Of a DNA stretch of 64,000 nucleotides, positions 3,482-63,692 are shown in pieces. The notes under the pieces were generated by a model that was not told the origin of the DNA, ran no database searches, and saw nothing but the letters and a program-made list of their open reading frames with translations. The stretch comes from Escherichia phage W22. Location: sequence record PV159336; one strand, written 5' to 3'. A program made the translations under genes and the position numbers. Positions within the stretch are counted from its first letter, which is position 1. Each line of letters opens with the position of its first letter.

Positions 3482-5443
3482 GTGATTTTAACACGTCCAA
3501 ATAGTGCCATTGCAGACATGGTAGAGTCTCGCTATAGAAAGCGTAGAAGTTTTGCAAGTGGTTTTACCTTAAGAGATGCTCGTGAAGCATTGCTCTTTGA
3601 AGCTGACGGTAACTACTATCAGTGGAAAGGCTCTCTACCTAAAGTTGTACCTGCTAACTCTACTCCTACATCTACTGGAGGGATTTCAGATACAGCTTGG
3701 AAAAATGTGGGTAATGCAGATGACATTGCTCAAATAGAATCAGAATTAGATGCTATTGAAGCTGAAATTGAAGATCTTAGAGAATCCATCCCAGAAGCTG
3801 GTAAATCAGCTTACCAGATTGCCGTAGACAATGGTTTCCAAGGTACTGAGACACAGTGGTTGGCTTCTTTAAAAGGTGATCCAGGTGCTCCATTAAAGCT
3901 ATTAGGGACACTATCTAATACCAACCAATTACCTACAAGTGGAAACAATGCAGGGGATGCATGGATTGTAGGCGAGAATATGTATGCTTGGGATGGTACT
4001 GCTTGGAGAAAAGTAAACTCACAGGGGCCAGAAGGTAAATCTGCTTATGAAGTATGGCTTGCAGCAGGAAATGAAGGTACAGAACTAGATTATCTTGCTT
4101 CAATTAAAGGTGATAAAGGGGAGCCTGGCCCAGAGGGGCCACAAGGTGTGCCAGGTAATAATGCTAATGGTTTTGATTACCAAGGCGCAGCTAATTCCGT
4201 TTCAGATCTTCCTTCTGCATCTCATGGAAACACATCTCAAGCATGGAGTGTTGGTACATATCTATACGTGTCAAACGGTGTAGAATGGATCAATATGGGT
4301 GCTATAGTGGGGCCAAAAGGAGATAAAGGCGACAAAGGTGATAAGGGTAACACTGGTGATTCAGCTTATCAAGTCTGGTTAAATGCTGGTAACGTTGGTA
4401 CTATTGATGAATATATTGCCTCTCTGAAAGGAGAAAAAGGTGATAAGGGAGACAAGGGTGATCAAGGTGCACAGGGTATACAAGGCTTGACGGGGCCAAC
4501 TGGTGCAGGGTTGACCATTATTGACATTCTTACTAGCACTTCTGAACTACCACAAACTGGAGAAGAGGGTGATGGTTATCTAATCAATAATGAACTTTGG
4601 GTCTGGTTGCAAGGAGCCACAGAGTGGACAAATGTTGGTCGTTTAGCTGGTACTCCAATCACTGCAAAAGGACACGTTGCGTCTGCAAGTGCACTTCCTC
4701 CTACAGCTAATTACGGTGATGCTTATCTGACGGAAGATACAGGTCATCTTTACATTTACACCTATGATGAACAAACTCAAACTGCTGAATATGTAGATAT
4801 GGGTAGTTTGAAAGGTGATAAGGGTGAAAAAGGTGACGCTGGTACTAACGGTACAGACGGTGCAACTTGGATTGTTAAAACAACAGATCCAATCTCTAGT
4901 GATGGTAAACAAGGTGATTATGCCTTTAATATCTCCACTGGCGAGGTGTTCTTAAAAACATCTGCAACTGTCTGGACTTCTCAAGGTACACTACCTAGTA
5001 TCACAGATGCACCTAGTGATGGTAAGACTTATGCTCGTAAAGATGGGGCATGGGAAGAACTCACTAATTCTGTAGATGGTCAAGATATAGTTCCAACAAA
5101 AGTAACAACTAATTTTATAGAGGTTACAGCATATACCAACAATTCTGTTACAGGCGACTGGACACCTCCAGGAACACATAACATGAATGTGTTGAATCTT
5201 ACTGGTAACTCTACTATAAAAGCATGGCCTGGTGTCGAAGATAGCACAAAACCTAAACCATTCTCTGCAATAGTTTATCTTATCCAAGATGCCACTGGAG
5301 GTCATACTGTTACTTTAGATCCATCTTACAAAGTAATTGGTTCTAGTGATATTAATACAGATCCTAACGGAGTAACAATACTACAACTAACATATTGTGG
5401 TGTTGGCGATTACGTGGATGCTATTGTTGCTAAACGCACATAA
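3482..5443 (+). CDS. collagen-like repeat tail fibre protein
   Basis: GTG start with AAGGAG RBS; multiple G-X-Y runs (KGDKGEPGPEGPQGVPG, GPKGDKGDKGDKGNTGD, KGEKGDKGDKGDQGAQGIQGLTGPTGAG). Confidence 0.7.
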   Translation: MILTRPNSAIADMVESRYRKRRSFASGFTLRDAREALLFEADGNYYQWKGSLPKVVPANSTPTSTGGISDTAWKNVGNADDIAQIESELDAIEAEIEDLRESIPEAGKSAYQIAVDNGFQGTETQWLASLKGDPGAPLKLLGTLSNTNQLPTSGNNAGDAWIVGENMYAWDGTAWRKVNSQGPEGKSAYEVWLAAGNEGTELDYLASIKGDKGEPGPEGPQGVPGNNANGFDYQGAANSVSDLPSASHGNTSQAWSVGTYLYVSNGVEWINMGAIVGPKGDKGDKGDKGNTGDSAYQVWLNAGNVGTIDEYIASLKGEKGDKGDKGDQGAQGIQGLTGPTGAGLTIIDILTSTSELPQTGEEGDGYLINNELWVWLQGATEWTNVGRLAGTPITAKGHVASASALPPTANYGDAYLTEDTGHLYIYTYDEQTQTAEYVDMGSLKGDKGEKGDAGTNGTDGATWIVKTTDPISSDGKQGDYAFNISTGEVFLKTSATVWTSQGTLPSITDAPSDGKTYARKDGAWEELTNSVDGQDIVPTKVTTNFIEVTAYTNNSVTGDWTPPGTHNMNVLNLTGNSTIKAWPGVEDSTKPKPFSAIVYLIQDATGGHTVTLDPSYKVIGSSDINTDPNGVTILQLTYCGVGDYVDAIVAKRT

Positions 5444-5445
5444 TC

Positions 5446-5471
5446 AAAGCCCCTTCGGGGGCTTATTATTT
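5446..5471 (+). terminator. rho-independent terminator
   Basis: AAGCCCC-TTCG-GGGGCTT hairpin then ATTATTT, 3 nt after stop. Confidence 0.65.
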
Positions 5472-5482
5472 AAGGAGATTAA

Positions 5483-8302
5483 ATGTATCCTATTCCTTTA
5501 TTTATGTCAACAACATCAGCTTCAGTAGTAACAGCTACATCTATAACCACTTCCTCTATTGGTATTGCAATAGTTGGTAGTAAAAAGCAACTGACATACA
5601 CAGTTTCACCGGAAGATGGTGCGTTATTTGATATAGCTTTTTCATCTTCAGATAATACCAAAATGGTTATAGATAATAACGGTATGATGGAGTTTGTTGC
5701 TGAAGGCGGTTTTGATGCAATAATGACAGCTAAAAATAATTTAGGTGCTGTCTTAACTGATCAGTCTGGTGGCTATGCTTCAGAATTAAGTGTGTACACT
5801 GAAAGTCTGTCTGCTATGGATGCAGGAACTACTCAACAATTGGTTGCTACAATCAGTCCAGAAGGTGCTAAAGACCTTCCAGACATGGTAATTACGTACA
5901 CCACAACAGATCCAGAAGTAGCTACTGTAAGCCCTACAGGATTAATAACTGCTCTTAAAGATGGCAGTTGCCGTATAGGTTGCACTGCAACTTATCAAGG
6001 AACAGTGGTGGCCTCTGATAGTTCTTATTTAGGTGTTAATGCTGTTCCTGTTATTTCTAATGTAACAGCCGTGGCAAACAGCTATGGAGACATTCGTGTT
6101 GCTTGGGATGTAGCTGATCCGCTAGATGGTGATACTTATACTGTAGAAGTATTAGATTTAAGTAATAACAGTGTCCAGTGGACTACAACAACCACGAATA
6201 CTTACGCCTACTTTGATATCTCTGACTCTATTCCTCTTTATGGGTTTGCTCCAACATACCTTAAAATTAGCGTTAAGAGCACCAAAGCAGCAGCCGTTAT
6301 CTTTAATAACTCAATAGCTACAGATGATTCATTCATTAAAGAAGTTATTGTCTTTGCTGGACAAGATAACGTAAATGCACACTTTACAGAACTATCTGGT
6401 GCAAATAAAGCAGCAATGAGTAGCACAACAGCCCGTAATGCATATGCTACGCAACGTGGTTTAGCAAATGCTGAAGTTCTCCCGTTAAATACAGCTTCTG
6501 GATCATCAGCAGCAGATAAATATGCAGATGATAAAGCCGGAACAGGTACACCAGACAACTACTGGTATGATCTGGATAACACAGCAGATGGGCCATGCTT
6601 AACTAACTTTATCACTAAAGTCACACCTTATGCAAGTAAGGTTAAAGCAATTATTTGGGGACAAGGTGAAAATGATGCTGTATCAGCATCTTCGACTGTT
6701 GCAGGAAGATACAGTAACACTACACGTTACCATGATGCTACGATAGCTATCTTTGATAAGATGCGTACAATAGTTCCTGCTTCTCAAGCAAAAATTGTTT
6801 GGCAGATCCTAGGACGTTCTTATCTGTATGGTGTAGAAGTTAATGGTGTGGATTGGCAGAAATACAGAAATGTACAAAGAACCATCTCTACAGCACGTGA
6901 CGATGTTATCATTGGTTCTTGGGTAGATGGTGCTGAACGTTACAGTGGTTATGTTTATGAAGAAGGTATTGATGGTCGTATCCATTATATTTCTTCTGTA
7001 TACCAGACAGCAGCTACAAAACTTGCTAAATCAGCAGCAGACGGTACAGACCTAACATCAACGTCACCTGTTTGGGTTGATATGGCTGTTCCAACTGGAG
7101 CAACAGCTACTTCCCAACCTAATCAAGATACAATCTTAGCATGGGATGCTCAAGGTTATAGTAAACACTACTTCCGTAATATTAACGTCTTAACAGCATC
7201 TGTATTAACTGAACAAACGCTTAATACGAACAGTTATACGTTTACCTATGCAGATCAAGTAGAACAATATGGTTTTGCAGCAGGTACTACGATATTTGAT
7301 GTTGCATATTATGACGAAGCAAATGATGTGTTATCTCCTTTAGTACGTTTTAATGTTAGCGTTACAGCAGGAAAAGTAGAAGATAAACCTGTCGTGATGG
7401 ACTATGATTTGACGCAAGAAACTCTCCCATCAGATGTTAAGGTTAATGGTGGAAACTCTTTTGCTCGTGCTTCTGGAGATACACTTGTAGCCACTAACAC
7501 CTTGGTTGCTCCGTTGGAGTATGTTGGCACTACCCCTGTAGGTAGACGTGTAACAGCTAACACAGCTACACAAATTTTTGTCAACAACGCCTTAACAAGC
7601 GCAAGCCCGTGGGTAAAGACCAACTTAACTGTTGCAGCTTCATCTGATAAATCTCCGGCTGGAACTACTGCTAATGTATTCAAATTAACTCCGACTACAA
7701 CCTCTGGTAGTCATATCTTAACTGCAACATATACTAACGCGTACAACATATCTGCCGGACGTAACTGGTCTGCCTCTGTTTTCTTGAAAGCGAACGGGAT
7801 TACTAAGGCCAAACTAAGATTAAAAGCAGGGACTGAAGTTAATGAAGGTACTTTTGATTTAGCAGCAGGTACATTCACAGGAAGTGAAGCTAATATTATA
7901 TCTATGGGCAACGGTTGGTATCGTGCTATTCTGCATAAAACAGGGATAGCCAAACAGTCCTCCATAAGTTTTGAAATAATTGCCTTGGATGCTACTGGTG
8001 CGGAGATTTTCGCTGGGGATGGTACTAGTAACCTTGCAGTTTGGTTGCCACAGCTTGAAGGTGCTTCTACAGGAGAAACATCAAAAGCTGGATCGCCTTA
8101 TGTCTGCACATATCCTGGAAATTTAGGAGGAGTATCCTTCACTATACCAAGGAACGGACATACTGGTGTGGATGTTTACTATTCCAACGGAGACGTTGTT
8201 CGTGACGTATTCTCTGGTACGGCATCTACTTGGACAATAAACTACTCCAGCTTGTACGATTGGGGATCAGTCTTTATTACAGGTTTGAAATATTACGACT
8301 AA
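5483..8302 (+). CDS. tail fibre protein with Ig-like (BIG2-type) repeats and SGNH/sialate-O-acetylesterase-like domain
   Basis: 939 aa; N-terminal Ig-like repeats; internal IIWGQGENDA resembles the W-x-QGESN esterase motif; AAGGAG RBS. Confidence 0.5.
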   Translation: MYPIPLFMSTTSASVVTATSITTSSIGIAIVGSKKQLTYTVSPEDGALFDIAFSSSDNTKMVIDNNGMMEFVAEGGFDAIMTAKNNLGAVLTDQSGGYASELSVYTESLSAMDAGTTQQLVATISPEGAKDLPDMVITYTTTDPEVATVSPTGLITALKDGSCRIGCTATYQGTVVASDSSYLGVNAVPVISNVTAVANSYGDIRVAWDVADPLDGDTYTVEVLDLSNNSVQWTTTTTNTYAYFDISDSIPLYGFAPTYLKISVKSTKAAAVIFNNSIATDDSFIKEVIVFAGQDNVNAHFTELSGANKAAMSSTTARNAYATQRGLANAEVLPLNTASGSSAADKYADDKAGTGTPDNYWYDLDNTADGPCLTNFITKVTPYASKVKAIIWGQGENDAVSASSTVAGRYSNTTRYHDATIAIFDKMRTIVPASQAKIVWQILGRSYLYGVEVNGVDWQKYRNVQRTISTARDDVIIGSWVDGAERYSGYVYEEGIDGRIHYISSVYQTAATKLAKSAADGTDLTSTSPVWVDMAVPTGATATSQPNQDTILAWDAQGYSKHYFRNINVLTASVLTEQTLNTNSYTFTYADQVEQYGFAAGTTIFDVAYYDEANDVLSPLVRFNVSVTAGKVEDKPVVMDYDLTQETLPSDVKVNGGNSFARASGDTLVATNTLVAPLEYVGTTPVGRRVTANTATQIFVNNALTSASPWVKTNLTVAASSDKSPAGTTANVFKLTPTTTSGSHILTATYTNAYNISAGRNWSASVFLKANGITKAKLRLKAGTEVNEGTFDLAAGTFTGSEANIISMGNGWYRAILHKTGIAKQSSISFEIIALDATGAEIFAGDGTSNLAVWLPQLEGASTGETSKAGSPYVCTYPGNLGGVSFTIPRNGHTGVDVYYSNGDVVRDVFSGTASTWTINYSSLYDWGSVFITGLKYYD

Positions 8303-8303
8303 T

Positions 8304-8335
8304 AAAAAAGGAGCCATTAGGCTCCTTTTCTTTTA
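8304..8335. terminator. bidirectional rho-independent terminator between convergent genes
   Basis: AAGGAGCC-ATTA-GGCTCCTT hairpin flanked by A-run upstream and T-run downstream; lies between + gene stop 8302 and - gene stop 8338. Confidence 0.65.
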
Positions 8336-8337
8336 TC

Positions 8338-8769
8338 TTAATCAGTGAAAATTACGCTCACATCTTCTTTAGAGAAGAGTTTATGATCTTCGCCTTTTGT
8401 CTCAAGAGTTTCATACAGGTTAAGAAGTTCTGAAACATCTTTCTCTACCAGTTTCTTCAATGTTGCAATTTTCTGTTTGCGACTCTTAATACGTTCAGCT
8501 ACAACCTTACGTTGGTATCCAGCAGTACGATAACCTGAGAAAGTTACACCAGTAAGACTTGCAGTTACAGGATCGTAGTGACGTTCAATCTGAAATTTAT
8601 TAAAAGGTACAGCGTCATCACGAATAATCTTACCGCCATTACTTACTTGACGAAGACCAGTAACTTGTTCCAGTCGTGCCATAGAAATCTTTGGAGACAG
8701 ACCAGAGTCCAAATTCATACCGTTGTTAATCAGTGCTTTCAGGGTGATTTTGCTGTTCATTGTACTCAT
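8338..8769 (-). CDS. hypothetical protein
   Basis: ORF of 143 aa; 5' end overlaps stop of upstream MTase gene so true start may be an internal Met. Confidence 0.4.
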   Translation of the reverse strand: MSTMNSKITLKALINNGMNLDSGLSPKISMARLEQVTGLRQVSNGGKIIRDDAVPFNKFQIERHYDPVTASLTGVTFSGYRTAGYQRKVVAERIKSRKQKIATLKKLVEKDVSELLNLYETLETKGEDHKLFSKEDVSVIFTD

Positions 8770-9457
8770 TTAGTCGTTCCTCCGCTTGCTTAAAAATATT
8801 TACATCGGCTTCACAGCCTAAGTATTCTCTACCTGTTAAAAGTGCCGCAACTTGTGTTGTTGCACTTCCAGAGAAGAAGTCTAAGACTACATCTCCTTCG
8901 TTGGTATGTATATTAATAAGGTCACAAAACAAAGTCAAGTGTTTTTGTGTTGGATGAAAACGATCTGCTCCTTGATAGATAGGATACTCAAACACACCCT
9001 TATGGTAGGAAGCATTGAAGGTTGGCTTCGAACCTTTAACACAAACAATAGCCATCTCTTTAGCGTTACTAAGGTAGTTAACACCACTGTTGATGGGTAC
9101 AGGGTTTGTTTTAATCCATTCAATAGTACGGAACATACGAAAACCAAGCGGTTCAAGGATTTCACGTAGCTCCTGGATCTTCCAGATATCATACCAAACT
9201 ATGCAAGTACCACCTTTTCTAAGCACCCTATAGGCTTCTTTGAATACTTCTTTAAAGTAAGGAATATCTACAACGTCCCAGTCACCAAAGTTGTAAGATA
9301 CACGGAATCTATCCGTATCTTTTCCAGTAGGCTCTCCAGATTGAAAATTTGTGTCACGAGAAATAGCATATGGTGGGTCAGTAAGAATCAAATCTACACT
9401 ATTGCTTTCGAGGGTTTGCAGGTAGTTTAATGCAGTGTTGTTTACAAATTCGCTCAT
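8726..9457 (-). CDS. DNA methyltransferase (N6-adenine/N4-cytosine class, motif IV before motif I)
   Basis: ILTDPPY catalytic motif near N-terminus and VLDFFSGSATT AdoMet-binding motif near C-terminus; GGAGAT RBS. Confidence 0.8.
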   Translation of the reverse strand: MSEFVNNTALNYLQTLESNSVDLILTDPPYAISRDTNFQSGEPTGKDTDRFRVSYNFGDWDVVDIPYFKEVFKEAYRVLRKGGTCIVWYDIWKIQELREILEPLGFRMFRTIEWIKTNPVPINSGVNYLSNAKEMAIVCVKGSKPTFNASYHKGVFEYPIYQGADRFHPTQKHLTLFCDLINIHTNEGDVVLDFFSGSATTQVAALLTGREYLGCEADVNIFKQAEERLNEYNEQQNHPESTD

Positions 9458-9475
9458 TATATCTCCTTCAAAGAA

Positions 9476-9495
9476 AAGGAGCCGTTAGGCTCCTT
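9476..9495 (-). terminator. hairpin terminator downstream of SSB-like gene
   Basis: AAGGAGCC-GTTA-GGCTCCTT hairpin, near-identical to the 8310-8325 hairpin; U-rich tract on - strand. Confidence 0.5.
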
Positions 9496-9517
9496 ATATT
9501 CACACAATATTTAACTA

Positions 9518-10465
9518 TTAGAAACAGTGCAGGAAGTTTCGACCATATTGCAAACCAATAGGAGCAAACGGGATATCATCATCGAAATCTTGAACAACAG
9601 GTTCTGGTTCTTTCGGTGCTGGCTCTTTCTTCTCTACTTTTTTAGTTTCTTTCTTAACATCTTGTACTGGAGTAGACATTCCACGGATAGCAGCAGCTAC
9701 TTTATCAGACAAAGCAAGAACTTCACGAGCAGCTTCAATAATCTCTTCTGCCGTTACAGTTTTACCTGTATGATCACGACAAGCGTTAAGAATTGCGTGT
9801 CCAACTGAAGCACCAAGATCATAGTCAGTCACATCAACACCACGATCTTTAGCAATTTCAGCTTTCAGAGTAACAGTTGCAGATTGTACCACACCAGCCA
9901 AATCGAAAGCATCACCTTTCACACCAGCACGTAGAAGCTCCAGAGCGCCGTTTACAGCGTGTCCTGTTTCAATCCCTACGGTATCACGTTTTTTGTAGTT
10001 AGGCTTGTTACCGTCATTATTAGATGGCTTATTTCCACCTTTTGAAGAGGATTGCGCTTGCTGAACACCTTCTGTTGAAAGAATAGTGATTTTACCTTTA
10101 GAGGAGTTGTAGTATGTTTTACCATTCCATTCGGAAGGTTTAACATCCATAGTTAGTTCTACGCCTTTTTCGATAGTAACCCACTTATCACCATCTTTAA
10201 CTTGCAGGTTTTCATGTTCTGGGTGCAGTTTAACTTCACCTAGGCTAACCCAAACACCTTTATCATCAGCACCAGCACCTTTCTCTTTAATAAGCAGAGA
10301 TGCTTTGTGAGTTGATTCAATTTTCTTATCTGGCTGACCTGCAACCTTAATATAAGAGACTTTCATTTCATCAAACTTATCTAGCTTGACATATTCGACA
10401 ATACCTTCAGCCCAGAATGCTTCTTTTTTAGTACGACGGTCGATTTCAGAATTAATTACTGGCAT
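9518..10465 (-). CDS. putative single-stranded DNA-binding protein
   Basis: AGAGGAG RBS; acidic DFDDDIPF motif typical of SSB C-terminal tails, here followed by 15 extra residues; low-complexity Gly/Ser/Asn linker. Confidence 0.45.
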   Translation of the reverse strand: MPVINSEIDRRTKKEAFWAEGIVEYVKLDKFDEMKVSYIKVAGQPDKKIESTHKASLLIKEKGAGADDKGVWVSLGEVKLHPEHENLQVKDGDKWVTIEKGVELTMDVKPSEWNGKTYYNSSKGKITILSTEGVQQAQSSSKGGNKPSNNDGNKPNYKKRDTVGIETGHAVNGALELLRAGVKGDAFDLAGVVQSATVTLKAEIAKDRGVDVTDYDLGASVGHAILNACRDHTGKTVTAEEIIEAAREVLALSDKVAAAIRGMSTPVQDVKKETKKVEKKEPAPKEPEPVVQDFDDDIPFAPIGLQYGRNFLHCF

Positions 10466-38005: not shown

Positions 38006-40780
38006 TTAGTTTACCAGTTTATTTATGTCTGGTAAAAGATTTATTTCACCTAAGAAATCACCTTCACCTTCCTCTAGCCAACTCTCATATGCTTGTGCAT
38101 GATTATAGTTACCATCAAAAGAATCTGCAACAAATTTTTCTACAGTTTTTCGAGATGTGCCAGCGCCAAATACACCAAGTTTAATACCATTGATCGGTAA
38201 AGTAGGGCTTGTTGGTACTTTCTCTGTTGCAACACGGTTGATATCTATAATCTCCTGTACGGTTGTATTCCATTGTAAGCATTTAACACAACGGGTGTGC
38301 GCTACATACAGTAGGTTTCGCTCTGCCTCTTCTAGTCCTACCCATTCACCAGTCTTTTTATCATAGTTGGAAGGAAAATCATTAGCAACAATAACCTGAT
38401 CCCACTCCAAACCTTTAGACTTATGTGCTGTAGTCAGTGTGACTTTTGCTGTAGGAGAATTTCTATGCGTTCTAAGTGTATGTGCTATAGTGTTTGCCTT
38501 ACCAGAAACTACAATGTTTAACAAGCGTTTAGCATCTGGATCAGCCTCTGCACACTCAACAAATTCATTCCAGTCTGCGTAAGGTAATACAGTTTCATGT
38601 TTTACTTTCTCAATATCTCCTCTCCGAAGAGCATTAACACTATCTACCATAGAGATAAAATCCCTGGTATCTACGTTAATAATAATTTCTTCCCCATCTG
38701 CAATACGATCCATTGCCTCCATAAGCAAGGTTAAATTCTTGCGAAAGATGATAGTGTAAGGTTTTGTATAGTCTACAACATCTGATTTGTAGCTACCTAC
38801 TACAGTATCAAAGCCTTTACCAACCAAAGGATGACGCAAAGGTTCTTTATCACTTAAAATCATATTCGCAATGTTTGCCACTTTGGGGCCAAAACGGAAG
38901 CAAGCAGTTAATGGAAGCTCTGCCCCATACTTAGCTGTTTCAATCATCATATTAGAGCTACCTCTAAATTGATAAATGCAGTTATGGCTAAGAATTTCAT
39001 TGCCAAAGAAGTTAGCAGTATCCTCTACTTCAATATCATAATAGATACCATCACTATCTACAATGTCCACAATTTCTTCTGCCGTTACAGTATCACCATC
39101 TTTTACTAACACAGACATGCCTTTAAACAAACCCGCTGCCGGAATTAAATTATATTTGGCAGTGTTCACAGAGGACATGCATTCTTTTAAAGATGCAAAC
39201 GGAACTATTTCAAGGATCTTTTGTGCAAAACTCAATGCTTCACGATAAGAATTGAAATATTTACGTACACGGTAACGACCTTCCAATTTAGCAACACTTA
39301 CGCTTACACCTGCTTCAATGAGTGAGGCATAGATTGGCATTTCACTTTCTGTCCACTCAAAGCTAACTTGTGTTCCTTTACAACCTTGTGCTCGCAAAGT
39401 CACTGTTAACATTTTTCTTGCATCTACTGTACAATTGATGCTGTGCCAATGTGGATAAGCAAAATGATAATCTTTATCCTCTAAAAGTTTAAAACCATTT
39501 TGTCCGAATTGTTCAAAGATATTGTTGATCCTTTCTTGATTAATACCGCGTGAACTTGCCTCAAATACACAAGTAGGAATGCCATATTGTAAACTGTATG
39601 CCATTTCTTTTTCCATAGCAGCTTCACGGTTTTCAACAATATCCAACACCCACAACTTCTGTGCTTTTTCAGAACGTGTACGTTGCCCCAGTTTAGAAAA
39701 ACCTTCTTTATCATCGAATTTGTTAGTGATCCCTACTCGGAAACCTAAATCTTTTCTCCACATTAGGTATACCACCATCTGATCATCTTTCAGAACATAA
39801 GGTGAAGCCCAAATACGATGGTTATGTGTCATATCTAAAGTCTTACCTTTAGCAGTAATAATATTCCTACCTTTTGTACGTGTAGATAAAGTTTTATTTG
39901 TTACTTTTCTAAATGTAACTTTACCGTTAGAATAAGACTCTACCTTATCACCGATTTGCAGGTCTTTCATTGTAACCTGACCATTTTCGGTATTAAGTAC
40001 CGTGTTTTCTGACACACATTGGAATTCATCACCAACTACCACAATTTGTTTGGCAGATTTAGCATTCCGCAGAATAGACAAGAATGCAGGGTTAACATCC
40101 TGGAATTCATCCCCAAAAATAATGTCATAACCAAGATCAGCACCAGACAATTCAAACAATTTTACATAGGTGTCATGCGTCATCAAAGTATCTGTGTTAG
40201 GGTCAATGCGCTCTCGCCACAATTGTTTTGCATACTTAACTACTTCTGTAATTAGTTTGTGTTCGTTAATACCTTTTCTTTTAATATCTGCAAGATGTAC
40301 ACTAGGAAAATGTTTACGGCTGATAAAAGGATCATCCGAAAATTCAAACTTACCTACGGTTTGCTTGATCATTAAACCAATCATAGCACGAGTTAAAAGT
40401 GTTTTCCCTCGTTTATCAATAAGATTATTAATCTTAAATTTCTTTGCTATCTCACTACCTGTACCTGCAACGTTAACATACTGTCCTTCTGGTCGTGACA
40501 GTTTTGCACGTAAACGATGATCCAGGAATTGATAGCAAATGGAATGCAATGTACGGCATTCTACATTTGGTGGCATCTTACGCCGTGCTTCTTCTGCCAT
40601 GCTTTTATTGAAAGCTAAGTAAAGAATGCGATCTTCTGTACTGTTAGCCAGCAAATAAAGTGTTGACGTTTTTCCTGATCCAGATTTAGCTTGGATAGTT
40701 AAAAACCGATGATCTGGAAAAGCCTCCTTAATAGCTGTTTGCTCTTCTGTTGGAGTAAAACTCAACTCTTTCTTAGCCAT
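38006..40780 (-). CDS. SF1 DNA helicase (UvrD/Dda-like) interrupted by an intein
   Basis: Start taken at MAKKEL; Walker A AKSGSGKT, motif II GDEFQD, motif III split as VVGDEFQ / CIYQFRGS by a 346-aa insert. Confidence 0.8.
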   Translation of the reverse strand: MAKKELSFTPTEEQTAIKEAFPDHRFLTIQAKSGSGKTSTLYLLANSTEDRILYLAFNKSMAEEARRKMPPNVECRTLHSICYQFLDHRLRAKLSRPEGQYVNVAGTGSEIAKKFKINNLIDKRGKTLLTRAMIGLMIKQTVGKFEFSDDPFISRKHFPSVHLADIKRKGINEHKLITEVVKYAKQLWRERIDPNTDTLMTHDTYVKLFELSGADLGYDIIFGDEFQDVNPAFLSILRNAKSAKQIVVVGDEFQCVSENTVLNTENGQVTMKDLQIGDKVESYSNGKVTFRKVTNKTLSTRTKGRNIITAKGKTLDMTHNHRIWASPYVLKDDQMVVYLMWRKDLGFRVGITNKFDDKEGFSKLGQRTRSEKAQKLWVLDIVENREAAMEKEMAYSLQYGIPTCVFEASSRGINQERINNIFEQFGQNGFKLLEDKDYHFAYPHWHSINCTVDARKMLTVTLRAQGCKGTQVSFEWTESEMPIYASLIEAGVSVSVAKLEGRYRVRKYFNSYREALSFAQKILEIVPFASLKECMSSVNTAKYNLIPAAGLFKGMSVLVKDGDTVTAEEIVDIVDSDGIYYDIEVEDTANFFGNEILSHNCIYQFRGSSNMMIETAKYGAELPLTACFRFGPKVANIANMILSDKEPLRHPLVGKGFDTVVGSYKSDVVDYTKPYTIIFRKNLTLLMEAMDRIADGEEIIINVDTRDFISMVDSVNALRRGDIEKVKHETVLPYADWNEFVECAEADPDAKRLLNIVVSGKANTIAHTLRTHRNSPTAKVTLTTAHKSKGLEWDQVIVANDFPSNYDKKTGEWVGLEEAERNLLYVAHTRCVKCLQWNTTVQEIIDINRVATEKVPTSPTLPINGIKLGVFGAGTSRKTVEKFVADSFDGNYNHAQAYESWLEEGEGDFLGEINLLPDINKLVN
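38981..40018 (-). other. intein (346 aa) within helicase motif III
   Basis: Starts CVSENTVLNT (block A), TxxH at MTHNH (block B), ends YDIEVEDTANFFGNEILSHN followed by +1 Cys; flanks rejoin as GDEFQ-CIYQFRGS. Confidence 0.7.
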
Positions 40781-49185: not shown

Positions 49186-50313
49186 ATGAAATACACGATT
49201 TATGGTGATATTGTAAGTGTAAATAAAGATATGGGTGTGGAATCTAATTATCTTCCACCTGGATTCTATACTGTTAGTCGTGATCCCCTTGGCAATTATT
49301 TTTTAAGCCGTGGTAATCTAACAGGTGTACCGGATGTTCTGTATGGTGAAACAGAAAAACGAGCAAATCACGTTATCCGTACATTCCATCGCCGGAGTGC
49401 ACAAGGTAAAAATACAGGTTTGCTTCTGACAGGAACTAAGGGCAGTGGTAAAACTATGTTAGCCAAGCTCATTAGTCGTGACCTTGTAGAAGAAGGTATT
49501 CCAACTATTATGGTTACTCAAGCCTACAGTGATGCTAATTTCATTGAACTTATTAGCAAGATCACCGACAAAGCAGTGATTATTTTTGACGAGTTTGATA
49601 AAGTATATGAGAAGAAACAAGATCAAGAAGCACTTCTCACTTTGTTAGATGGTACTGGCAGTGGTAATAAACTGTTTATTCTAACTAAAAACAGTGGCTT
49701 TATCTCTGAATTCTTTCTAAATCGTCCTAGTCGTGTGTTTTATAATTTTAATTATGATAAAATCTCACTAGAAACTATGATTGACTATTTAGATAAAAAC
49801 CTGGATAACAAAGCACACTTTGATAATTTCCAAAGACTTTGGGATGTAAGTTTAGAGTTGTCCTTTGATGTGATCCAAGGTATAGTAGAAGAACTTAATT
49901 TCTACCCTGATTTATCCTTTAAAGAATGCATCTCTATGATGGGCGTTTCTTTGGGTGGTGGTAATAAATGGGATATCAGCAGTGTTGTTATTAATGGAAA
50001 ACTTCAGAAAGTTAGCTGGGTATCTAGTTGGCATAACTTCACACCTGCAATCTTTTTAGGTGGTTCGTGCACACTAGACGTGTACTTGTCATCTCCAAGT
50101 GATGCAGATTCTAAAGAAGCCCTTGCTAATAGCTCTTACGTGGTTTTTGATGATGAAGGCGATGCTCGAATTCCATTGAATGCGACAAAAATGAAAGCAG
50201 ATCTTATTACAGGCGGTAAAATCGTTGTGTTTAGTGATGATCCAGAAGATTCTTTCCGTATTGTTCTGGAACCAACTATCACCAATGGTGCAACTTTGGC
50301 AAGTGTGTTTTAA
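49186..50313 (+). CDS. P-loop NTPase (AAA-type ATPase), paralogue 2
   Basis: Walker A GTKGSGKT, Walker B IIFDEFDK; co-linear similarity to 32223-33383 (LLTLLDG, LFILTKN, NRPSRVFYNF). Confidence 0.6.
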   Translation: MKYTIYGDIVSVNKDMGVESNYLPPGFYTVSRDPLGNYFLSRGNLTGVPDVLYGETEKRANHVIRTFHRRSAQGKNTGLLLTGTKGSGKTMLAKLISRDLVEEGIPTIMVTQAYSDANFIELISKITDKAVIIFDEFDKVYEKKQDQEALLTLLDGTGSGNKLFILTKNSGFISEFFLNRPSRVFYNFNYDKISLETMIDYLDKNLDNKAHFDNFQRLWDVSLELSFDVIQGIVEELNFYPDLSFKECISMMGVSLGGGNKWDISSVVINGKLQKVSWVSSWHNFTPAIFLGGSCTLDVYLSSPSDADSKEALANSSYVVFDDEGDARIPLNATKMKADLITGGKIVVFSDDPEDSFRIVLEPTITNGATLASVF

Positions 50314-50327
50314 GTAAGCCAGTAAAT

Positions 50328-50354
50328 AAAAACCCGCTTCGGCGGGTTTTCTTG
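50328..50354 (+). terminator. rho-independent terminator
   Basis: AAAACCCGC-TTCG-GCGGGTTTT hairpin then CTTG. Confidence 0.7.
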
Positions 50355-50387
50355 TATTGATGCCAGATTTAATAAAAGGAGTAGTAG

Positions 50388-51365
50388 ATGGTAGCACCAA
50401 AATCATGGGAACAATATAAAGAAGAGTGTCAACCAATAGCAGAGAGTAAGCAAATCCAAATCTTAGGATGGACGGGACAATGGAAAGGGGGCCACACAAA
50501 ACTTGATTTGTTGTGCCATTGTGGTTATAAATGGGATACTACAAGTATTAACAGTTTTAAATGTGGTAGCGGTTGTCCACAATGTAAGAGGGAGAAACAA
50601 ACAATGTCCGACGATCAACATATTGCAGGTTTCTTTTCTACAGGGAAATTTAAGGAAGGCACTATCTTCACTAACACAGGAACACGGGGTAAAGGATGTA
50701 GGCATATTACCTGGATGGTTGAATGTCCTGTTTGCTCTCATGATGAATATGTTCAAGCAGGTGTTTGTGATGGTAAATTTTACTCTAAAGGACATCGCCT
50801 TAAACAAGGGTATATTCCGTGTCGTTGTGGGAACTATCAGTATACAGAAGACCAGATCACCTATAGGGTAAAAAAGGAAGTAGAAGGGAAAGGGTATGTC
50901 TGGGTAGATTGGATTACCAAACCCTCTTCTATAGGTAAGTTTAAATATCTTTGTCTTGTGCATGGTGAGCAGATAGGGAGTGCTCGTAATTTATTAAGCC
51001 TCGGTCAAGGTTGTCCACAGTGTGCTGGTCATAATCAACAGCAATTATATATTAATATTGTTAAAGATAATGATATTATAGTTGCTCTTAAGTTTGGTAT
51101 ATCTAAAGATAGTGATAGACGATTAAACGGTCAAAATAGCCGTAATCTGTTTTTTATGGAGCGTATTTGTTTATATGATTTTAGCACAGTGAAACAATGT
51201 AAGGCTGCTGAAAGAGCTATAAAGAAAAAATTAAAAACTGGTATTTTAACGGAAAGAGAGTTGAAAGACGGTTATACAGAAACAGTAAGTGTTTCTGATT
51301 TGGAAAATCTTCAAAAAATTATTACACAATATGGTGGCAAATTAGTATACAGTAAGGAGATGTAA
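50388..51365 (+). CDS. zinc-ribbon-rich protein with C-terminal T5orf172 (GIY-YIG-like) domain
   Basis: AAAGGAG RBS; repeated CxxC modules (CGSGCPQC, CPVCSH, CRCGNYQY, GCPQCAGH); C-terminal LKFGISKDSDRRLNGQNSRN. Confidence 0.4.
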   Translation: MVAPKSWEQYKEECQPIAESKQIQILGWTGQWKGGHTKLDLLCHCGYKWDTTSINSFKCGSGCPQCKREKQTMSDDQHIAGFFSTGKFKEGTIFTNTGTRGKGCRHITWMVECPVCSHDEYVQAGVCDGKFYSKGHRLKQGYIPCRCGNYQYTEDQITYRVKKEVEGKGYVWVDWITKPSSIGKFKYLCLVHGEQIGSARNLLSLGQGCPQCAGHNQQQLYINIVKDNDIIVALKFGISKDSDRRLNGQNSRNLFFMERICLYDFSTVKQCKAAERAIKKKLKTGILTERELKDGYTETVSVSDLENLQKIITQYGGKLVYSKEM

Positions 51366-51917
51366 ATGCGGATTACTGATAAGTATGTGTTCTTCTTCTC
51401 GGCAAAAGATGAATTTAGCAACTGGTATCTATCATCTTTTATTGAACCTTTAGCTCCCAAGTATAATAATTCTATTACAAGTTCTGTTGAATTTACTTGT
51501 GTGGAACAATATATGATGTGGAGAAAAGCATGTTTGTTTTATGATTACAGTATTGCATCTTCTATTTTAACCGGAGATCTAAGATATACAGGAGAAAAAG
51601 AACAAGCATATTATAAACGACTAGGCAGACTAGTTAAAGATTATGATGAAGATACCTGGACTTCTTTACGGGAGAAGATTGTCAAACGTGGTTTGTATCT
51701 TAAATACACACAAAATGAAGATCTCAAAAATAAACTTATAGCCTACGCAGATAAGGAGTTCGTAGAGGCAAGCCCTTATGATTCTATTTATGGTATCAAA
51801 ATGGGGATGTGGGATCGTGATGTGGAAAATAAGGACTGTTGGAAAGGACAAAATCTTTTAGGAAAATGGCATACAGACCTTGCTGTTTATCTAAAAGCAC
51901 AATCTGATATTTCCTGA
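51366..51917 (+). CDS. NADAR-domain protein (YbiA-like N-glycosidase / ADP-ribosyl-processing family)
   Basis: AGGAGA RBS; VFFFSAKDEFSNWY, CVEQYMMWRKACLF, EFVEASPYDSIYGIKMG, GQNLLGKW blocks. Confidence 0.7.
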   Translation: MRITDKYVFFFSAKDEFSNWYLSSFIEPLAPKYNNSITSSVEFTCVEQYMMWRKACLFYDYSIASSILTGDLRYTGEKEQAYYKRLGRLVKDYDEDTWTSLREKIVKRGLYLKYTQNEDLKNKLIAYADKEFVEASPYDSIYGIKMGMWDRDVENKDCWKGQNLLGKWHTDLAVYLKAQSDIS

Positions 51918-52132
51918 TATTTTGAAAATTTTTATTTTTATAAAAAGGGGTGTGGGTTTCATGTACAGAAATTCACCCTCTGCACAGTATATCCAGAGTA
52001 AATATTATTCTGTACTCTGTTAATAAAGTATTTAATTTGTTTGTTGGATTATGGTATCTGATCTTTAAAAGGCATACTATCTCTTAACTACTACTTATAA
52101 CAGAACAGTAAAATCATTTTTATAAAAAGGAC

Positions 52133-52340
52133 AAAATTATTTAAAGTTTTTACAGATTTTTGGGTACAAATTTTGAAAATGAAAAGTTCAAGTTTGGTCA
52201 AAATTATTTAAAGTTTTTGTACGTATTTCTATCCAGATTTTGAAAATGAAAACTTCAATTTTTTAAAAATTCCCCAGTTTATTTAAAGTTTTTTTGCCTT
52301 TTTCCGTAGAAAAATCAAAAATGAAAAGTTCAATTTCGTG
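52133..52340. repeat. three tandem AT-rich direct repeats (about 67-77 bp units)
   Basis: Each unit has ATTTAAAGTTTTT (52139, 52206, 52281) and TGAAAATGAAAA(G/C)TTCAA (52174, 52241, 52316). Confidence 0.7.
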
Positions 52341-52359
52341 TTTTTATGGGTATGCGTAT

Positions 52360-52470
52360 GATAATCATTCTCATTTGTAAATGAGAATCATTATCATTTA
52401 ATTATGTAAATGATAAGCATTCTCACTAAGAGAATGAGAATCATTAGCAAATGAGAATTTTTCTCATTTA
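52360..52470. promoter_or_regulatory. palindromic operator-like array built on TGAGAAT/ATTCTCA
   Basis: Three inverted repeats: 52360-52395 (17-bp arms), 52418-52436, 52449-52469; at least 7 copies of the 7-mer in 110 bp. Confidence 0.6.
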
Positions 52471-52730
52471 CAGAATAACGCGCAGGGGCGGTGTTTGTCT
52501 CGCGCTCCCGTGTCCCCTCGCCATACAATAAGAATAGCATAACCAACAACAAAAGCAAGCGATTATTTTTATCTTTACATTTCTTTACAAATTTATTTTG
52601 GACGAGCTACCGGCGATCAACCTTCCAACCAGTGCCCCCTGGTATGTTAGCCCCGCCTTTACGCCGTGGGGGTGGCGTTTCCTCTTCTGTATGTAAAACA
52701 GTATAAGCCCGATCCCTGGGCTTGTCAAGA

Positions 52731-52997
52731 TTATTTTTTGTTTTCTTGCCAGGATAGGACACCTAACCAAAAATACATGTCGCCCCGCGCCCCTGGCGGG
52801 ATCTTGCTTTCCCCGCCGCCACTGCAAGCCCATAAATAACCATCAGCGAACGGATCAAAGTGATCTATCTCTTCCACCTTATGATCGCCCAGGTTGAGAA
52901 CGGTTTCAACCTTTAAGCCCGTTGCGCTTGCTACCTGGTGCACCGTGCCGCCTTGCCAGCCCAATGAGTGCATGAGATGTAAAGGAGTATTTGTCAT
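52731..52997 (-). CDS. hypothetical protein encoded in GC-rich island
   Basis: 88 aa ORF with AAGGG RBS; local GC content far above surrounding phage DNA. Confidence 0.3.
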   Translation of the reverse strand: MTNTPLHLMHSLGWQGGTVHQVASATGLKVETVLNLGDHKVEEIDHFDPFADGYLWACSGGGESKIPPGARGDMYFWLGVLSWQENKK

Positions 52998-53108
52998 GGT
53001 ATCGCCCTTTCTTTGATGTGCGCCCTGGTTGGCGCGGTAGAAAGATAATAGCCGTTTCCTTTATAGATAGCAAGCAAAAAAGAAATGAAAAAAAGATTAA
53101 AAAAATGG

Positions 53109-53170
53109 TTGACGTTCCTCACCTGGTAGCGTAGTATTCATCTTGTCGAGGGGCGGCAATAGTGCCGCTC
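53109..53170 (+). promoter_or_regulatory. sigma70-like promoter plus 5'-UTR hairpin cassette
   Basis: TTGACG 53109-14, 17 nt, TAGTAT 53132-37; hairpin GCGGCA-ATAG-TGCCGC 53153-68. Confidence 0.6.
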
Positions 53171-53192
53171 ATAACAGAAGAGAGAAATAATC

Positions 53193-59663: not shown

Positions 59664-59933
59664 ATGAAAATATCATTGGACGTTGCAATCAAGGCCATCG
59701 AATCCGGTTACACCCTGGTAAAAGATGATAAGGCTAAAATAGTGCATCATGTTAGCAAGGAAACAGGCGAAAGCATGATCACATATAAAGCCGCCTACTT
59801 TCTCCAATCAGTAGCAGATCCGCGCGTACAGCGCCAGGTCACGGCGGCTATTGCTAAAAAATTATGTGCTTTACAGGGCACAAGTTTTAACGAGATCCCG
59901 CCGTGTTTTGACTGGTCGAGCTTGAAAAAATAG
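59664..59933 (+). CDS. hypothetical early protein
   Basis: 89 aa ORF. Confidence 0.5.
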   Translation: MKISLDVAIKAIESGYTLVKDDKAKIVHHVSKETGESMITYKAAYFLQSVADPRVQRQVTAAIAKKLCALQGTSFNEIPPCFDWSSLKK

Positions 59934-62876: not shown

Positions 62877-63169
62877 ACCTCAATAAAGATGATAGCTTTT
62901 ACCTATCAAAAACGTTCACCGAAAAAAGTGAATAGATCGCGGTATCGAGCTAATCAAGGAGCAGATGAATAACCATACCATGAAGATCATAAGGCGCTTA
63001 CAACGTGTTTTAGACCGCTTATTTTTAATTTCTCCATGTAACTATCTGGCAAAAACAGCCTTTTTCTTATCTTTCCTCTTAAATAATAATCATTCTCATT
63101 TATAGCTGATTATTTATGCAATAAACTGAATAATGCAATAATGATAATCATTCTTAACTTAAGACCATC

Positions 63170-63480
63170 TAACCTATAAAATAATAAGTTATCTAACTAA
63201 ATTAAAACTAATTATCTTACTTTTATTTATAACTTACTGTTACTATCTCATTGATAACCTTATATTAAACAACAATAACTAATATAAATCATTACTAAGC
63301 TAAATATAATCTATCTAACCTTTAAAACTATAACTATAATCTATTTAATTATTGCACAAAGTAACTATTAAATCGTTAGTAACATTACTAAATAATTAAT
63401 ATCCTATCTATTTATGATCTAATCTTTACCTTACTATCTATTACCTAAATAATCATTTCATACCGTAATCATTTCATACA
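63170..63480. repeat. G-depleted, extremely AT-rich low-complexity tract
   Basis: About 10 G in 300 nt on + strand; built from CTAA/TTAT/ATCT-type words; no ORF. Confidence 0.7.
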
Positions 63481-63523
63481 ATAATTATAACAAGAAATAT
63501 AATTCGCAAGCGTATCATTAGCA

Positions 63524-63692
63524 GCCTATGCCGGACACATAGGCGGCTAATAATAACGCAACTACACACCTCACATAATAACTATCACCGATAGTTATTA
63601 TCTGTGCTTATGTAGCTTGCAACAATTGCAAGCGCAACAATATACACGGTATATTGTATTCCCTTACATTGTTGCGGTGCGTTATTATTAGC
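63524..63692. repeat. cluster of nested inverted repeats (cruciform/structured-RNA candidate)
   Basis: GCTAATAATAACGC 63546-59 pairs with 63679-92; inner IRs at 63524-44, 63576-63600 (11-bp arms), 63615-33, 63633-76. Confidence 0.65.

Follow-up and report, generated by a model that had tools for sequence, protein, structure and literature searches.

Position-conserved arrays of Fur-box-like palindromes in two non-coding regions of Escherichia phage W22 and their possible role as an iron-dependent gate

Within a 64,000-nucleotide stretch of Escherichia phage W22 (sequence record PV159336; one strand, 5' to 3', called "the window" below), two non-coding regions carry groups of 21-bp palindromes that are real, non-random, position-conserved, and indistinguishable from real operators of Fur, the iron sensor of the bacterial host. 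On the strength of their sequence, we consider it probable that host Fur binds these sites, and the reading we favor, at a probability of roughly 0.45, is that the Fur-bound arrays would act in cis as an iron-dependent gate at these two non-coding hubs.

Two groups of 21-bp palindromes in the W22 window

The part of the window around the sites is 97-99.7% identical to phi92-like phages (Justusliebigvirus, Stephanstirmvirinae), with Escherichia phage EC.P2 as its closest relative, and genome parts beyond the window were taken from EC.P2 (whole genome, 148 kb). Non-coding region 1 (NCR1) spans 51918-53192 (1.27 kb) and is nearly gene-free in the records of phi92 and alia; non-coding region 2 (NCR2), from 62835 to about 64580 (1.75 kb), is gene-free and extends beyond the window end. 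Both contain members of one site family with the 21-bp consensus AAATGAkAATCATTmTCATTT, described by a matrix built from phage-family sites, and a 15-bp core of the type TGAkAAT-N-ATTmTCA.

The NCR1 array consists of five tandem sites over ~110 bp (52356-52469), with cores starting at 52359, 52382, 52411, 52435, and 52452 and centre spacings of 23, 29, 24, and 17 bp. Site 1 (52356-52376, GTATGATAATCATTCTCATTT; core 52359-52373) scores 30.1 bits and differs at one position from the 7-1-7 motif TGATAATNATTATCA, while site 2 (52379-52399, AAATGAGAATCATTATCATTT; core 52382-52396) scores 34.0 and matches the classical Fur consensus at 16 of 19 positions. Site 3 (52408-52428, AAATGATAAGCATTCTCACTA) scores 24.5, with 15 of 19 positions matched, site 4 (52432-52452, GAATGAGAATCATTAGCAAAT) scores 23.5, and site 5 (52449-52469, AAATGAGAATTTTTCTCATTT), the proximal site whose position is conserved among relatives, scores 28.8. 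A half-site-like hexamer, CAGAAT (52471-52476), lies 18 bp, or three hexamers, past the GAGAAT of site 5 by direct reading of the phasing, and its AGAAT is nearly invariant in alignments.

NCR2 has two cores within the window, at 63084 and 63142. The first belongs to site A (63081-63101, AAATAATAATCATTCTCATTT; score 29.7), near the start of the region, and the second to site B (63133-63159, TAATGATAATCATTCTTAACT; 16 of 19), which includes an overlapping copy shifted by 6 bp (scores 22.0 and 6.9) and whose three hexamers, AATAAT-GATAAT-CATTCT, are laid out as in classical Fur boxes. Two further sites, C and D, follow just past the window end (at 12665 and 12860 in EC.P2), which brings the phage genome to about ten strong sites, all confined to NCR1 and NCR2. 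Elsewhere in the genome nothing exceeds 12 bits (EC.P2), except an isolated Fur-like match of 18.6 bits on the minus strand of the window (39462-39482, AAATGATAATCTTTATCCTCT; 16 of 19), which lies inside a 937-amino-acid open reading frame and is probably due to chance.

An earlier note on this DNA had reported that GTAAATGAGAATCATTATC (52377-52395) and AATAATGATAATCATTCTT (63137-63155) each match the Fur consensus GATAATGATAATCATTATC at 16 of 19 positions and that the 16-mer ATAATCATTCTCATTT occurs exactly at both 52361 and 63086. Both statements are correct; the two 19-mers fall at sites 2 and B, and the 16-mer is included in site 1. As an argument, the identical 16-mer is weak alone, with 0.7 such repeats per shuffled window, and the 27 exact 16-mer repeat events in the window (versus 0.7 in first-order Markov shuffles) come mostly from other repeat families. 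The same note had worried that A+T-rich palindromes match Fur boxes by chance and had proposed a count of the 16-mer as a check: the exact repeat is indeed unremarkable, but with up to three mismatches ATAATCATTCTCATTT has 10 matches versus 2.1 expected, nine of them inside the two regions. Matches of at least 16 of 19 to the classical consensus number 4 in the window versus 0.05 expected, and the 21-bp phage matrix finds 7 sites of at least 20 bits (scores 22-34) versus 0 in 60 simulated windows. That the sites are functionless palindromes of an A+T-rich genome, as might be suspected from its base composition (about 38% G+C; 29% in NCR2) and from the fact that a single exact 16-mer repeat is not rare, is already refuted by these simulations and by the conservation of site positions across subfamilies; the remaining genome, moreover, is devoid of sites apart from the one 18.6-bit match.

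Conservation of site positions among relatives

Homologues were collected with the anchor GTTAGCCCCGCC (window position 52646) from phi92, alia, ESCO5, KP13-26, SSE121, KB57, and CR8 and from 16 IMG/VR contigs. A strong site lies 183-198 bp (233 bp in one case) from the anchor in 22 of the 23 distinct sequences, which represent two subfamilies, and in the 23rd an insertion of about 740 bp has shifted the proximal site. Up to four more sites occur upstream of the proximal one, often exactly 29 bp apart, and between subfamilies no alignment is possible for the DNA directly to the left of the array. At NCR2, four Stephanstirmvirinae have one site 244-247 bp into the region and two more 330-680 bp before the next gene, in surrounding DNA that is about 72% identical or unalignable, and Mydovirus-like contigs likewise keep sites about 10 kb to the right of the anchor.

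Just left of the NCR1 array, three iteron-like direct repeats lie on the plus strand (52116-52336; start-to-start distances of 67 and 75 bp). Three repeats, each 63-78 bp long, occupy the equivalent place in all relatives examined, with a sequence that differs between Stephanstirmvirinae and Vequintavirinae. Since the iterons vary by lineage while the palindrome stays constant, the palindrome is probably bound by a host factor. This contrast is telling, in that the repeats act as one would expect of sites for a co-evolving phage protein, and the palindromes as one would expect of sites for something constant across lineages and enterobacterial hosts.

Two observations concern these relatives individually. 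In a Raoultella phage Ro1-like contig, the ~740-bp insertion separates two Fur-like sites from the conserved element transcribed from promoter P1 (described below), and the related Klebsiella phage K23PH08C2 has an HNH endonuclease gene annotated under the match, which suggests that a mobile endonuclease inserted in the hub. In three relatives the direct repeats span 941-1149, 794-996, and 787-980 (own numbering), and those of Vequintavirinae contain two GATC or CGATCG words each.

Relation of the phage sites to Fur operators

The Fur-box consensus is widely common to bacteria, and against its 19-bp form the phage sites match at 15-17 positions, compared with 15-16 for the ent-fep operators in the same scan, i.e., at the level of real operators. 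The best phage sites have one or two mismatches to the 7-1-7 motif. Bacterial Fur operators (the extended aerobactin operator iucA, and fhuA, fecI, fepA-fes, and entC) and the phage sites are alike in this 19-bp or 7-1-7 sequence and in the tandem and 6-bp-shifted copies that make up extended operators: site pairs shifted by 6 bp occur at 63133/63139 and 52350/52356, and likewise in several other viral contigs, in keeping with hexamer (NATWAT) phasing. Within site 4, the 14 nucleotides GAGAATCATTAGCA (52436-52449) are identical to part of the iucABCD Fur box GAGAATCATTAGCATTCGC, which was protected by Fur from HinfI in assays (PMC10318462).

As a cross-recognition control, a matrix from the phage sites alone was scanned over 160 kb of Escherichia coli K-12 fetched around known iron genes. 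Ten matches reached at least 10 bits, namely two at fepB-entC, one each at fepA-fes, fhuA, fecI, fecA, and cirA, one in the yeiS/preT spacer, one in the map/rpsB spacer, and one inside htrE. Nine of these ten best matches are at Fur-linked loci, with only the htrE match lacking a Fur link, so that the matrix recognizes Fur-linked host sites and little else; preT is a target in chromatin immunoprecipitation sequencing of Fur with Fur-dependent expression (PMC4676285), and the map/rpsB site is listed among Fur-site predictions in Salmonella, for two genes whose expression depends on Fur (PMC3212961). Seven of the eight Fur-controlled promoter regions in the K-12 segments scored at least 10 bits, the eighth, fepD-entS, scoring 5.9 and ranking fifth in its segment. 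By the same matrix, host operators score 6-25 bits and phage sites 22-34, all host sites but one falling below the phage sites; the 160 kb, which includes 8 Fur-controlled promoters, has no more than 2 sites that reach 20 bits. The earlier note had left the binder as either a phage regulator or host Fur; the recovery of host sites, the iuc match, and the constancy of the motif across lineages support host Fur much better, while the iron-responsive control of phage functions that it attached to Fur would be a further step, to which titration in trans is an equally open alternative.

One feature departs from the host pattern. At heptamer position 4 the phage sites favor G (TGAGAAT) over the canonical T, a preference shared by unrelated contigs and by T5-like and phi92/rV5-like phages; of the host operators, only a minority have G there. 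Because of this departure, some other protein with a preference for G at that position could still be involved, such as a phage regulator or initiator, or a second host factor, that prefers GAGAAT-N-ATTCTC, with the likeness to Fur boxes being incidental or mimicry. The sites adjoin iterons rather than overlying promoters, and most neighboring genes lack an assigned function and could encode a DNA-binding protein. We nevertheless regard a binder other than Fur as quite improbable: the G-type sites of E. coli (fecI, map/rpsB, preT, and iuc) are themselves Fur-linked, the same 21-bp consensus, flanks included, recurs in contigs related to soil and marine phages as well as among T5-like phages, groups with no evident shared regulator, and co-evolution with a phage protein is displayed by the lineage-specific iterons and not by the palindromes. 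Inspection against their consensuses led us to reject Lrp, ArgR, TyrR, Zur, and PerR, whose half-site spacing or discriminating bases do not fit. Neither a homologue of E. coli Fur (with the query used) nor homologues of the T5 pre-early proteins, including the DNA-binding protein A2, were found in the phi92-like genome, and BLAST of the array against E. coli genomes returned only short, uninformative plasmid matches.

Similar arrays in T5-like phages and environmental contigs

The array part of the query also matched T5-like phages by BLAST, the likeness to the T5 region being limited to the array. In T5 the stretch 9551-9710, part of the annotated injection-stop region, contains one weaker site and four that reach 25 bits or more, and Gostya9 has five sites. 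An exact-pattern scan of IMG/VR returned at least 120 stretches, of which 119 were scored; among the matches listed, 66 of these 119 have two or more strong sites and 34 have three or more, with up to nine sites within a few hundred base pairs and a G+C content from 21 to 53%. Two contigs among the matches listed encode terminases closest to those of Stenotrophomonas, Alteromonas, and Acetobacter phages and of Pelagibacter phages. Judging by sequence, the only evident common denominator of the array-bearing phages is a conserved host protein.

These wider occurrences bear on whether the sites act as nucleic-acid structures, i.e., as DNA cruciforms, or as RNA hairpins in P1/P2 read-through, that serve as terminators or as packaging or injection-stop signals. 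The array folds on paper, weak Rfam matches to hairpin (microRNA precursor) models were obtained, the T5 array lies within the mapped injection-stop region, and three unrelated IMG/VR contigs have their arrays (5707-5946, 5779-5907, and 2952-3240, own numbering) in large spacers about 0.2-2 kb from terminase genes. The terminase link may reflect genome-end or packaging regions, or may be a product of ascertainment, since the detection of short viral contigs relies on genes of this kind. The sites themselves argue otherwise. Most fall short of perfect symmetry, with two half-sites that differ (GATAAT with GAGAAT), many pairing a G-type with a T-type half, so protein recognition fits better than hairpin formation. 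Perfect palindromes make up only 3 of the 34 distinct phi92/rV5-type cores, about half of the 34 mix T-type and G-type half-sites in a way that breaks pairing, and the differences are not compensatory; stems would be A+T-rich and weak, and it is sequence, not merely pairing, that is kept across 21 to 53% G+C. A structural role appears very improbable to us.

T5 repeat region 3, the injection-stop signal (iss), provides a close parallel, in that it shares with the W22 region the 21-bp palindrome array, a large conserved untranslated region, direct repeats that are lineage-specific, and a G+C-rich hairpin. T5 differs in having DnaA boxes (9449-9518) and a LexA-box-like palindrome beside its array, and the phi92-like regions have neither: no DnaA box (pattern TTWTNCACA), paired in inverted repeats or otherwise, and no LexA or IHF site was found in NCR1 or NCR2, apart from two IHF-like words in NCR2. 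To our knowledge, two-step injection is not known for phi92-like myoviruses. Davison's preprint assigned the DnaA boxes in T5 and listed other palindromes and repeats with a function impossible to guess (10.1101/866236). On the T5 side we noted a perfect LexA-box-like palindrome at 9409 (TACTGTATAAATATACAGTA) and DnaA-box-like words at 9449, 9498, and 9510, directly before the array, so that apparent sites for three different host DNA-binding proteins stand side by side in the injection-stop region.

From these occurrences one might go further and propose that near-consensus Fur-box arrays are a widespread and previously unrecognized non-coding element of phages (phi92/rV5-like phages, the T5 iss, and environmental phages) that recruits the host iron sensor. 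We hold this broader proposal to be rather doubtful, though worth stating; under it, the T5 iss palindromes would be Fur sites, and the arrays could serve as a Fur sponge that unlocks host iron, or Fur could be an architectural or gating factor at origin-like, packaging, and injection hubs.

Promoters and conserved elements around the NCR1 array

To the right of the array, NCR1 contains a leftward unit with two predicted sigma-70-type promoters. P1 (52700-52728, minus strand; TTGACA, 17 bp, TATACT; 11 of 12 consensus positions) is strong. It is at a fixed position in all 24 sequences scanned (9-12 of 12), with conserved hexamers and a variable, G+C-rich spacer, and for these reasons it is likely a real promoter. 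P2 (52531-52558, minus strand; TTGCTT, 16 bp, TATTCT; predicted start near 52524) is weaker; it reaches 9 of 12 in most Vequintavirinae (TTGCAA-17-TATATT) and is weak in W22. Relative to the predicted start of P2, the array would be about 46-170 nt downstream. It is flanked by the two promoters to its right and by the direct repeats to its left, at the place where the leftward unit runs up against a rightward operon ending at 51917.

Between the array and P2 is a G+C-rich hairpin (52480-52522) with a conserved loop, GTGTTTGTCT, on the plus strand. In an alignment read by eye, without a pair-count test, the stem varies by lineage with pairing kept (GCG/CGC, CCGG/CCGG, and CCCGG/CCGGG) and the loop constant. 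A conserved element of ~100 nt (52590-52693, minus strand), apparently transcribed from P1, is a candidate structured non-coding RNA. About 84% identical between two distant subfamilies and annotated as non-coding everywhere, it has its indels restricted to one hairpin loop and shows one covarying pair, with RNAalifold giving two covarying pairs only. Folding of the single sequence 52470-52695 on either strand is no more stable than that of shuffles, and neither the array nor the ~100-nt element matches Rfam at gathering thresholds, with chance-level matches only at E-values up to 10. The element is a candidate for a new phage non-coding RNA, or for a primer or leader.

A possible gate in cis or titration in trans

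We infer Fur binding, cooperativity, and an effect in cis, in the following steps. Iron-loaded Fur dimers would line up next to one another on the array, as they do at the extended aerobactin operator, and the Fur-covered array, ~110 bp long, would form a nucleoprotein block that ties events at the hub to host iron status. The likeliest dependent event would be P1/P2 transcription entering the iteron region, which resembles a replication origin or control locus, and at NCR2 the two right-hand sites, C and D, may act in the same way on early transcription. A role in cis is favored by the positions of the sites, which are kept within a few base pairs relative to promoters, hairpin, and iterons.

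Several points, the departure at heptamer position 4 among them, weigh against such a gate. No conserved promoter overlapping the NCR1 array was found, the array covers no recognizable -35 and -10 hexamers, and the NCR2 sites could not be assigned to a conserved promoter. The array is situated at the convergence of the rightward operon and the leftward P1/P2 unit, where there is perhaps nothing to repress. Five to nine tandem high-affinity sites exceed the needs of simple regulation, and if iron-loaded Fur formed a block in iron-replete cells, a lytic phage would apparently be hindered by it. A candidate promoter on the plus strand that would cover the proximal site (TTGAAT, 18 bp, CAGAAT) was rejected, as its -35 is unconserved in Stephanstirmvirinae and KB57-like phages lack the key A of its -10; nor was a convincing conserved promoter found over NCR2 sites C and D. 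The absent overlap lowers the claim of a classical operator and not that of a Fur-binding site, and about 200 Fur sites mapped by chromatin immunoprecipitation in E. coli are without transcriptional effect (PMC4676285). Of the earlier note's proposal that a shared operator at two loci implies a common binding protein, the part that holds is a shared motif of the kind recognized by a protein; control of promoters, with no recognizable -35 or -10 overlapped, does not follow.

The number, strength, and regular spacing of the sites, the lack of an overlapped promoter, the presence of two loci, and the recurrence in unrelated phages would favor a sponge, in which the sites bind host Fur so as to titrate it in trans. 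With about ten strong sites per replicating copy, the phage would outcompete the weaker host operators and derepress the regulon (siderophore uptake, iron sparing by RyhB, and the NrdHIEF reductase), thereby providing iron for the phage ribonucleotide reductase and DNA synthesis. The Fur titration assay (FURTA) relies on the titration of Fur by multicopy Fur boxes, and the roughly 5,000-10,000 Fur monomers in a cell are comparable to what about 10 sites on a few hundred genomes would take up at 2-4 monomers per site. The higher matrix scores of phage sites relative to host operators, the scarcity of sites of at least 20 bits in the K-12 segments, the recurrence in unrelated phages of arrays of 3-9 sites over no promoter, and the presence in the phage genome of genes for a glutaredoxin and for the large subunit of ribonucleotide reductase all point the same way. 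Yet pure titration needs no exact positions, and those of the phage sites are kept within a few base pairs; titration would also come late in infection. Titration as the primary role we judge unlikely on balance, but it is compatible with the iron-dependent gate, and computation alone cannot separate the two.

Comparison with known systems and significance

Host Fur operators lie over the -35 and -10 of an iron-regulated gene and usually comprise one to three boxes, whereas the phage has five plus four in gene-free hubs with no recognizable promoter beneath them, and its consensus is nearer the ideal than most host Fur sites and favors G at heptamer position 4. Host Fur sites on phage genomes have precedents among temperate phages: the stx1 promoter carries a Fur box, and temperate lambdoid phages have one upstream of sitABCD (PMC6969025). 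Those are single operators before a cargo gene wired to the host regulon; W22, by contrast, is virulent and has conserved arrays with no cargo gene.

Titration loci, whether by the FURTA principle or as datA for DnaA, sequester a regulator on clustered high-affinity sites without controlling the adjacent gene. W22 resembles them in its clustered strong sites, and the strict positional conservation in the phage suggests some role in cis. Iteron-type origins that use host proteins (IHF, DnaA, and Fis) are also similar in having tandem direct repeats, here three that vary by lineage, promoters that fire inward, A+T-rich surroundings, and a cluster of sites for host factors, but W22 differs in having no DnaA boxes, and we do not know of Fur as an origin accessory factor. 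The rV5 genome paper reports only skew changes tied to transcription direction, with no mapped origin, and marks only a "non-coding" box (PMC3606486).

Fur boxes before cargo genes of temperate phages are known, and arrays in virulent phages are apparently new: a literature search that included few subscription journals yielded no account of Fur-box arrays in T5, in rV5/phi92-group phages, or in virulent phages generally. If Fur binds, large virulent coliphages in wide use in therapy collections (phi92-, rV5-, and T5-like) would be wired to, or would manipulate, host iron status, and infection would be linked to a variable that dominates in the gut and in infected tissue. Binding by Fur would also assign a binder to the T5 injection-stop palindromes, whose function has been described as impossible to guess, and would yield a simple DNA signature that can be searched for and tested across phages, namely tandem Fur boxes within gene-free hubs.

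Neighboring genes and other repeats

The genes around NCR1 are mostly without assigned function, except for an AAA ATPase 2 kb upstream. Just upstream of the region (49186-51917) are this AAA ATPase, a CapR and T5orf172 (endonuclease-like) protein, and a NADAR-domain protein, and a small leftward open reading frame with no function assigned occupies 52731-52997 (minus strand) beyond P1.

In NCR2, an unusual tract of several hundred base pairs (63160-63560 and beyond; 29% G+C) is composed of short words, among them TAACT, ATCTA, and TATAA, and contains imperfect repeats of 21-28 nt. It lies between the two pairs of Fur-like sites, and the public records of several related phages start or end in NCR2. 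Finally, spacers of the small-gene region contain G+C-rich stem-loops that are exact repeats (at 53151, 53508, 53955, 55516, 55846, 56164, 56729, 57286, 59403, 59973, 60249, 61231, and 62849). Their families include GGCGGGAAATGGTTTCCCGCC (six times), GGGCGGCAATAGTGCCGCTCA (three times), and AAGGGCGCAATAAGCGCCCTTT (twice), some copies being preceded by a common TATCACATAGG, and AAAAAATAGTTTGACAATA is repeated at 59925 and 60200; the stem-loop families resemble promoter/stem-loop or terminator cassettes reused between early genes.

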